From Escherichia coli (GTDB taxonomy: Bacteria > Pseudomonadota > Gammaproteobacteria > Enterobacterales > Enterobacteriaceae), in the NCBI RefSeq assembly GCF_003334335.1, contig NZ_QOWQ01000057.1: a stretch of DNA of 17,995 bases. One strand, 5' to 3'. The position numbers and the translations under genes are program-made. Shown one piece after another: positions 9,129 to 10,462 of this stretch. The notes below the pieces were generated by a model that ran no database searches, had not been told where the DNA came from, and saw only the letters and a program-made list of their open reading frames with translations. Every line of letters begins with the position of its first letter. Position 1 is the first letter of the stretch.

Positions 9129-10462
9129 TGGTGGATTTAATGGTGAATGAGCAACGGTCGAGTACGGCGGGGAAAGATGTGCCTGCGGGGTATAAACTGA
9201 CTGAGGTGGGCGTGATTCCTGAGGATTGGGATTGCGTACCATTTGGTAATCTGTTTAAAACAAACACAAAGAAAAAAAAAGTCAGCGATTATGAGCTAGT
9301 TTCATTTATTGGGATGCAGGATGTTAGTGAAGATGCACAATTAAAAAATAATACTCAACTTCCTTTTAAAGAAGTTAAAAGTGGTTTTACTTACTTTGAA
9401 AAAGGGGATGTTTTATTAGCTAAAATAACCCCTTGTTTTGAAAATGGAAAAGGATGTCATACCGCTGATTTACCTACTAATGTAGGTTTTGGGAGTACGG
9501 AATTTCATGTATTAAGGGAAAATGAAGACTCCGATTCTCGCTTCATCTATTTTTGGACAACTGATAAAAAATTCAGAGCATCACTGGAATCTGAAATGGT
9601 GGGAAGTGCGGGACACCGTCGTGTGCCGCTAGTTGCTATAGAAAAATATTTGATTCCATGTCCCCCAAATTTGCAAGAGCAAAGTGCTATTGCTGATTCA
9701 TTATCTGATATTAATAATTTTATTCTAGCTCTAGAAAAGCTTATCGTTAAAAAACAAGCCATTAAAACCGCTACTATGCAGCGACTACTGACTGGTAAAA
9801 CCCGTTTGCCACAGTTTGCGTTGCGCAAAGATGGCTCTGCTAAGGGATATAAAAAGAGCGAGTTGGGGGAGATTCCTGAAGATTGGAATTGTATTAATCT
9901 TGGTGAGCTAGGTAATTGCATTATTGGGTTAACTTACAAACCTGAAGATACATCTGATTATGGTACATTGGTATTACGCTCATCCAACATTCAAAATAAT
10001 CACTTAGCTTATGATGATAACGTCTTCGTCAGCATAGAACCACCTGAACGCACAATTGTGAAAGAAGGTGATATCTTGGTATGTGTAAGAAATGGCAGTC
10101 GCCAACTTATTGGCAAATGCGCATTAATTGACAAAAATGCGCAGGGCTCAGCATTCGGTGCATTTATGTCAGTATTCCGAACTGATATATATGGATTTAC
10201 ATTTCACCAATTCCAGTCTGATATTATTCAAAAGCAAATCGCTGAAGTTATGGGTGCCACTATCAATCAGATAACTAACAAAGATATGTTGGGCTTTAAA
10301 ATCCCATTACCTGAAAATACAGAAGAACAAGCCGCCATCGCCGCCATCCTCTCCGATATGGACAAGGAAATCCAGATCCTGCAACAGCGTCTGGACAAAA
10401 CCCGCCAGCTTAAGCAAGGGATGATGCAGGAACTGTTAACCGGGAAAATCCGCTTAATATAG
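9128..10462 (+). CDS. hsdS: Type I restriction-modification specificity subunit HsdS (two target-recognition domains)
   Basis: TGATG overlap with hsdM (ATG 9128-9130). Two A+T-rich variable domains each opening with IPEDW(D/N)C, separated by the conserved central repeat LIVKKQAIKTATMQRLLTGKTRLP and ending in the conserved EIQILQQRLDKTRQLKQGMMQELLTGKIRLI. The ORF-track start at 9122 is a GTG. Confidence 0.9.
   Translation: MVDLMVNEQRSSTAGKDVPAGYKLTEVGVIPEDWDCVPFGNLFKTNTKKKKVSDYELVSFIGMQDVSEDAQLKNNTQLPFKEVKSGFTYFEKGDVLLAKITPCFENGKGCHTADLPTNVGFGSTEFHVLRENEDSDSRFIYFWTTDKKFRASLESEMVGSAGHRRVPLVAIEKYLIPCPPNLQEQSAIADSLSDINNFILALEKLIVKKQAIKTATMQRLLTGKTRLPQFALRKDGSAKGYKKSELGEIPEDWNCINLGELGNCIIGLTYKPEDTSDYGTLVLRSSNIQNNHLAYDDNVFVSIEPPERTIVKEGDILVCVRNGSRQLIGKCALIDKNAQGSAFGAFMSVFRTDIYGFTFHQFQSDIIQKQIAEVMGATINQITNKDMLGFKIPLPENTEEQAAIAAILSDMDKEIQILQQRLDKTRQLKQGMMQELLTGKIRLI
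9272..9280 (+). repeat. A9 homopolymer tract inside the first target-recognition domain of hsdS
   Basis: caaagAAAAAAAAAgtcagc, encoding TKKKKVS; nine consecutive A at 9272-9280. Confidence 0.9.

Follow-up and report, generated by a model that had tools for sequence, protein, structure and literature searches.

An A9 tract in the hsdS gene of an Escherichia coli RRDM defence island is probably an incidental slippage hot spot rather than a phase-variation switch

[quoted passage not shown] With a rough probability of 0.7, we regard this tract as an incidental run of lysine codons that acts as a replication-slippage hot spot, giving rise to rare null hsdS alleles as well as frequent miscalls of its length, and not as a dedicated switch. 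The tract is the longest homopolymer in the window, where every other run reaches 7 bases at most. It is located about 40 nt inside the variable first target-recognition domain (TRD1), and the sequence-only reading had placed it correctly in the coding sequence of that domain: the run is in frame and sits at the start of TRD1.

The hsdS gene is part of an RRDM (RptR-RMS-DarTG2-M48) defence island, which was defined in EPEC E2348/69 by Zhang et al. 2025 (PMC12255303). The window shows the gene order rptR-hsdM-hsdS-darT-darG-hsdR-M48, with repeats containing TAGCTA, the operator reported for this island (PMC12255303), upstream of rptR (Table 1). The EPEC island shares this seven-gene order, identical DarG and M48 proteins and the TAGCTA repeats before rptR, whereas its hsdS allele is a different one. 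E2348/69 is not among the 71 complete genomes that carry the TRD1 of the window, and the experimentally studied EPEC island is therefore without the A9 tract. HsdS of the window contains two TRDs and matches the M. jannaschii S subunit 1yf2 over its full length, and its gene lies between a translationally coupled hsdM upstream, the stop codon of which overlaps the hsdS start codon, and hsdR downstream. The nearest solved core for HsdM is of the EcoR124 M protein type, and a Pfam scan of its C-terminal 372 residues returned no significant match.

Table 1. Features of the window relevant to the A9 tract. Stop positions of the off-length products are given in A9 numbering.
Feature	Position	Strand	Basis and remarks
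Three direct repeats (TTAGCTAA, TTAGCTAA, TTATCTA) upstream of rptR; probable RptR operator	6362..6392	+	TAGCTA at 6364 and 6373
rptR, 79-aa repressor, first island gene	6411..6650	+	RefSeq 'HTH-like domain-containing protein' WP_001431807.1; Pfam HTH_73; PMC12255303
hsdM, 812 aa, translationally coupled to hsdS (TGATG)	6690..9128	+	TIGR00497, E=5e-84; PADLOC MTase_I, full length
hsdS, type I specificity subunit, 444 aa, two TRDs	9128..10462	+	ATG at 9128, stop codon 10460-10462; PADLOC Specificity_I, E=2.9e-131; PDB 1yf2, residues 21-443; RefSeq 'restriction endonuclease subunit S'
Four lysine codons AAG AAA AAA AAA, K48-K51 of HsdS	9269..9280	+	in-frame translation from ATG 9128
A9 homopolymer	9272..9280	+	read directly
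A10 product, 55 aa, ...KKKKSQRL	stop TGA 9292..9294	+	computed; exact peptide in public assemblies
A7 product, 54 aa	stop TGA 9292..9294	+	computed; exact peptide in public assemblies
A8 product, 56 aa, ...KKKKSAIMS	stop TAG 9297..9299	+	computed; annotated WP_001340500.1 in NCTC86 records
A11 product, 57 aa	stop TAG 9297..9299	+	computed
A6 and A12, frame kept, no premature stop			computed
ATG (M63), sole in-frame restart codon after the tract	9314..9316	+	annotators' start of the 382-aa C-terminal ORF (WP_066008940.1) in frameshifted alleles
darT (DarT2 toxin), embedded between hsdS and hsdR	10475..11131	+	NF048013, E=2.3e-78; RefSeq annotation
darG, antitoxin	11128..12195	+	NF048014, E=2.5e-135; WP_000634203.1, identical to EPEC RRDM DarG
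hsdR, 1031 aa	12214..15309	+	TIGR00348, E=1.2e-163; PADLOC REase_I
M48-family metallopeptidase, last island gene	15309..16025	+	RefSeq WP_001122107.1, accession shared with the published RRDM island

To describe the consequences of a length change, the products of the altered tracts were computed. Those of the A8 and A10 alleles agree with the earlier statement that a slip of one base in either direction truncates HsdS after about 50 residues. The same reading had also considered a half-S product, which appears unlikely, as the tract precedes TRD1 instead of lying between TRD1 and TRD2. We rejected a half-S subunit because all frameshift products end before TRD1 forms and because the open reading frame that restarts at M63 lacks the N-terminal 62 residues, including the first strands of TRD1. 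Furthermore, no evident spaced Shine-Dalgarno element could be read in the sequence upstream of M63 (TTTATTGGG). Since a product of 55-56 residues contains no recognition domain, a slip of one base is predicted to give a null hsdS allele and not a half-S subunit. Half-S subunits that dimerise are reportedly produced from NgoAV hsdS of Neisseria gonorrhoeae and from truncated HsdS of EcoDXXI and EcoR124I. These systems are similar to the present one in that a homopolymer or a truncation in hsdS alters the product of the specificity gene. In contrast, their break is said to fall after TRD1 and the central conserved region, which leaves a functional half subunit with palindromic specificity, while the break in hsdS of the window falls at codon 49-51, before any TRD, and leaves a peptide of only 54-57 aa.

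The following course of events is proposed. Four lysine codons in an AT-rich, horizontally shuffled TRD would leave the A9 run as an incidental by-product. As no homopolymer in the operon is longer, this run would be the site where replication slippage most readily generates frameshifts of plus or minus one base. Such a frameshift would end translation after 55-56 residues, whereby the specificity subunit is gone and both methylation and restriction would be lost. Since restriction also needs HsdS, this loss would be harmless to the cell. In mismatch-repair-proficient E. coli, slips would be rare and A9 would be kept in nearly all isolates. Slips would surface in lineages deficient in repair, the Escherich strain NCTC86 being one. 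We infer replication slippage as the mechanism, a null phenotype and a low rate of switching. Mismatch repair in E. coli suppresses one-base loops. Indel rates in this species climb exponentially with run length (PMC8510543). Both points agree with a hot spot of this kind that shows mainly when repair is lost.

The length of the run is not beyond chance, given the KKKK peptide and the codon usage of hsdS. The gene has a G+C content of 39% overall and 35% in TRD1, compared with 50% for the window, and 29 of its 36 lysine codons are AAA (AAA:AAG = 29:7). Under a first-order Markov model, 0.42 runs of at least nine bases are expected per window and 0.18 per hsdS. When the codon order of hsdS was shuffled, 18% of the sequences held a run of at least nine, and this share amounted to 66% for permutations of synonymous codons that kept the protein unchanged. 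The A9 run is thus a likely outcome of the KKKK peptide combined with AAA-heavy codon usage.

When HsdS is aligned with the M. jannaschii S subunit 1YF2, the lysine run falls into a variable loop behind the first TRD1 strand (GTPKTSVEEY in 1YF2). Other alleles of the locus cease to be similar about 103-107 nt after the start of hsdS. Two of them, the O157:H7 and AMA1167 alleles, agree with hsdS over the first ~105 nt before diverging, and contain neither a lysine run nor any homopolymer longer than 7. In the closest diverged homologue, found in Enterobacter hormaechei with 94% nucleotide identity over 366 nt, the tract is interrupted (AAGAAAATAAAC). Here, the corresponding codons read AAG AAA ATA AAC, which is two point substitutions away from the E. 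coli run. Across 25 homologous TRDs, the tract segment is variable and merely K/R-rich. These comparisons make the tract a property of a single TRD1 allele and not of the type I system as such. Since it occupies a variable TRD, is absent from the sister alleles and is interrupted in the nearest homologue, nothing in the alignments indicates selection to keep a mutable run.

Tract length was compared over 81 bases centred on the run among 5,426 complete RefSeq E. coli genomes, 71 of which carry the TRD1 of the window. A sequence identical to the window, with A9, was present in 68 of these 71 genomes, and the remaining three showed a one-base deletion (A8). All three A8 records are assemblies of strain NCTC86 (OZ489144.2, LR217818.1 and LT601384.1). 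A fourth NCTC86 assembly (CP019778.1) has A9; this record is PacBio-only and contains a one-base deletion leading to a frameshift in hsdM. Outside NCTC86, all 67 complete genome records have A9, and these originate from humans, cattle, deer, chickens, a pigeon, a baboon, a mink, water and food. The comparison of tract length among related genomes, which the sequence-only reading had proposed, therefore gave a divided answer: variants do exist in public assemblies, but the tract comes close to the invariance across isolates that had been named as evidence against a phase-variable site.

The A8 allele is real in NCTC86, because LT601384 is a PacBio assembly in which indels were corrected with Illumina reads (PMC5382810). 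NCTC86 is the Escherich strain, whose mutator status is documented: all its collection isolates carry the mutL deletion L68_A69del together with a frameshift in mutT, and their indels are in excess, as is typical when mismatch repair is deficient (PMC5793043). The only motifs reported for its PacBio methylome are those of Dam and Dcm plus GGTACC and GAGCC, and a bipartite type I motif is not among them (PMC5399273), which is consistent with a silent type I system.

To cover a wider collection, exact peptide look-ups were carried out among ~15 billion proteins, and every predicted product was found. The full-length A9 product occurred in 4009 index blocks, the A8 peptide in 48 and the A7 peptide in 33 index blocks, while the A10 and A11 peptides were present in 9 contigs and 1 contig, respectively. 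Together, the off-length alleles A7, A8, A10 and A11 make up ~2% of occurrences overall. Their share depends on contig size, and "short-read-type" and "long-read-type" refer to such size classes throughout this work. In contigs of 10 kb-1 Mb, the size range usual for isolate assemblies from short reads, off-length alleles account for 0.7%, versus 8.7% in contigs >1 Mb, an enrichment of about 12-fold (odds ratio 13, p=2e-8). The share in contigs <10 kb is 11%, although the smallest classes are biased, as a complete 444-aa product cannot fit into very short contigs.

Many of the off-length loci contain further homopolymer deletions, and one locus has 37 indels. A C4 deletion at position 7644 recurs in several of these loci and in the PacBio-only CP019778. 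A7, which lacks two bases, almost reaches the frequency of A8, and this fits undercalling in long reads better than slippage. A large share of the off-length alleles in the databases therefore probably consists of homopolymer sequencing errors, and the raw off-length count was rejected as evidence of switching in view of the additional homopolymer deletions and the enrichment in contigs >1 Mb. Among the cluster members, P0020 and P0021 were rejected as frameshifts, being contig-end fragments in the correct frame, and P0023 and P0024, which stem from single contigs of ~5 Mb and have an extra substitution in the tract, are probably errors.

A set of clean loci remained, in which A8 or A10 is the sole indel in 7-11 kb (L008, L010, L013, L014, L025 and L026). 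Clean off-length cases are distributed over at least three or four haplotypes, namely NCTC86-like, L034-like, the N337H haplotype of DA33137 and an allele with a different TRD2, and both A8 and A10 were found on the N337H haplotype. One clean case is a short-read MEGAHIT metagenome contig. In the otherwise clean frameshifted loci, hsdM, darTG and hsdR are all intact. For the haplotype of L013 and L005, the nearest complete genome is DA33137, which is 99.9% identical and shares the N337H variant of HsdS; the complete genomes hold near matches to this haplotype and no exact A9 counterpart. The clean cases on several haplotypes therefore show that frameshifts at the A9 tract are genuine and recur, which makes it a hot spot, with a frequency well under 1%.

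The sequence-only reading had regarded the tract as a possible slipped-strand phase-variation site. Such a contingency locus would reversibly set the RRDM type I system to OFF (A8 or A10) or ON (A9) at a rate relevant in populations, giving restriction-less, unmethylated subpopulations that might, for example, acquire foreign DNA or be spared the cost of the island. Several observations are in line with this proposal. Every length from A7 to A11 occurs in public assemblies, and clean A8 and A10 alleles on several haplotypes point to recurrent events, as expected of a true switch. The intact remainder of the operon in clean frameshifted alleles is compatible with recent or reversible switching. 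The NCTC86 assemblies disagree with each other, three with A8 against one with A9, although the latter is the PacBio-only record with the hsdM frameshift.

The length of the run also agrees with the criterion of the REBASE survey by Atack et al. 2019, where, according to its main text, hsd genes containing in silico mononucleotide runs of at least nine are called phase-variable (PMC7383803). Examples given there include G[n] tracts in hsdS of Mannheimia haemolytica and a G12 tract in hsdS of Salmonella enterica serovar India, while the main text of the survey makes no mention of E. coli (PMC7383803). Compared with the SSR-containing, putatively phase-variable hsdS genes presented in that text, the window shows the same arrangement of a run of at least nine within the hsdS frame, in which a change in length shifts the frame. 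In contrast, its run consists of A and codes for lysines, belongs to the variable TRD of just one allele and is unconserved, and the allele has A9 in all complete records outside NCTC86, in a repair-proficient host. Measured against what defines a phase-variable hsd gene, A9 is an SSR in an open reading frame of at least nine bases with a unit not divisible by three. However, ON and OFF lengths are not both common among isolates, and the repeat is not maintained in related alleles or species.

Taken together, these data do not support a phase-variation site, and we consider a contingency locus with a population-relevant rate unlikely. All 67 complete records outside NCTC86 have A9, the share of off-length alleles is only ~0.7% for short-read-type assemblies and rises in those assemblies in which sequencing errors are to be expected, and the sole well-verified variant comes from a mismatch-repair-deficient strain. 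One allele alone carries the tract, in its variable TRD and outside the conserved scaffold, and in relatives the tract is absent or interrupted. Moreover, E. coli possesses full methyl-directed mismatch repair, which corrects one-base loops. In one passage of PMC8287963, E. coli type I systems are called non-phase-variable. A weaker version of the proposal is a low-rate switch that is nevertheless biologically used, in which A8 or A10 OFF cells would lose restriction and methylation, keep DarTG2 and be able to revert. Such a switch, which we hold to be improbable, would have left its footprint in the clean A8 and A10 alleles that recur on several haplotypes.

The tract could also act at the level of RNA or translation instead of DNA, with RNA polymerase slipping on A9 or ribosomes sliding on AAA AAA AAA, so that HsdS output is lowered and A8 or A10 alleles are partly rescued. 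The motif A AAA AAA is the classical -1 slippery heptamer. Nine A/T bases is the length at which selection against slippage-prone runs shows in many bacterial genomes, and programmed slippage takes place at nine-base runs in Thermus dnaX and Shigella mxiE (PMC1088944). Slippage of E. coli RNA polymerase is detectable from T7 or A8 upward (PMC6260861), and a passage of PMC4363877 reports that iterated AAA lysine codons cut protein output in E. coli via ribosome sliding. On the other hand, poly(A) is a poor substrate for slippage of the E. coli polymerase relative to poly(T), with rescue of ~5-10% at T7/T8 and none detectable below A8 (PMC6260861). In hsdS, both alternative frames stop after 4-5 codons and no conserved trans-frame product exists. 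There is no stimulatory structure downstream, as the folding energy equals that of shuffled sequences (z=0.02), and no Shine-Dalgarno-like element could be read upstream of the tract. The tract is, in addition, not conserved in homologues.

On these grounds, namely the lack of an extended alternative frame, of a downstream structure and of a Shine-Dalgarno-like element at an unconserved run, programmed recoding was rejected as unlikely. The known programmed slippage sites (Thermus dnaX A9, Shigella mxiE T9 and IS elements) resemble the present tract in being a run of nine A on the sense strand of a coding sequence, but hsdS of the window differs in having no extended or conserved alternative-frame product and an unconserved run. 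Some loss of HsdS output at A9 is plausible and would at best be a small, non-selected expression tax; as an account of the tract, slippage at the RNA or translation level is improbable.

That all A7, A8, A10 and A11 alleles in the databases are homopolymer sequencing or assembly errors, as might be concluded from their strong enrichment in long-read-type and fragmented assemblies, from the other homopolymer indels at many of these loci, including the recurrent C4 deletion, and from an early carrier that is a 2010 draft assembly whose own read-level contig has a further homopolymer deletion (L011, L012), is very improbable, given that A8 is present in three separately deposited NCTC86 assemblies, one of them Illumina indel-polished, that the methylome of this strain contains no type I motif, and that short-read-type contigs carry A8 or A10 and no other indel (L010, L013, L014 and L025).

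A true switch at this tract would give E. coli its first described SSR-controlled type I system and would tie a defence island that combines restriction-modification with DarTG2 to stochastic ON/OFF behaviour. On present evidence, the practical value of the tract is modest. As an incidental slippage hot spot, it points to a site at which the run length is commonly miscalled in long-read assemblies, and a rule of "nine or more bases" applied to hsd genes will flag incidental poly-lysine tracts of this kind as phase-variable. For NCTC86, the A8 allele explains why hsdS is annotated either as "frameshifted" or as a 56-aa "hypothetical protein" followed by a 382-aa S subunit, and it fits the lack of a type I methylation motif in this strain.

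The entire locus is an RRDM defence island, as published from EPEC E2348/69 (PMC12255303), in which DarTG2 sits between hsdS and hsdR. The direct repeats upstream of rptR match the published RptR operator. The DarG and M48 proteins are identical to those of EPEC E2348/69, but the hsdS allele is not the same. The genes flanking the island on both sides fit its horizontal acquisition in a mosaic region.

Features of the island and its flanks (window coordinates)
Feature	Position	Details
Ag43/Cah autotransporter	161-3082	minus strand; upstream flank
GTPase-family gene and hypothetical genes	within 161-5412	upstream flank
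Whole island: rptR, hsdM, hsdS, darT, darG, hsdR, M48	6362-16025	genes in order; span includes the direct repeats
Direct repeats (n = 3)	6362-6392	TTAGCTAA twice, plus TTATCTA
A7 run in hsdM	6699-6705	codons 4-6
A7 run in hsdM	7567-7573	
C4 run in hsdM	7644-7647	CCTGCCCCACGG
HsdM C-terminal extension	8010-9125	residues ~441-812
IS600, EspI and IS5 remnants	16600-17995	downstream flank

HsdM is 812 aa long, and solved HsdM proteins and Pfam domains reach only its first ~450 residues; no significant Pfam match was found for the C-terminal ~370 residues. The PADLOC type I MTase model covers the full length of the protein, which therefore belongs to a recognised long-HsdM subfamily with an extension of no annotated function.

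An apparent one-base deletion in the C4 run of hsdM was seen in five separate assemblies, namely CP019778 (the PacBio-only assembly of NCTC86) and L007, L018, L019 and L021, public-assembly loci whose poly-A tract in hsdS is off-length. The deletion splits hsdM in all five carriers, and the annotation of CP019778 reads 'frameshifted' at this run. Either long-read sequencing errs systematically at this site, or the run is a second frameshift hot spot. Loss of a single base is also seen at both A7 runs among the error-prone assemblies L009, L020 and L023, and fits a length-dependent technical error profile.

The A8 locus L010 (GCA_900236145.1) has an NCTC86-like haplotype. Here, a C-to-T change at window position 14371 splits hsdR into a 719-aa product and a remainder, apparently another step in the decay of this system, in a mutator background similar to that of the Escherich strain.

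Four loci (L011, L012, L022 and L007) share TRD1 with the window, poly-A tract included, but possess a different TRD2: window positions 9886-10321 are unaligned in all four, and the C-terminal ORF of hsdS comprises 384 aa, compared with 382 aa for the window allele. Since the same tract-bearing TRD1 is joined to another TRD2, the tract has moved by TRD shuffling, and at least two hsdS specificities have received it in this way.
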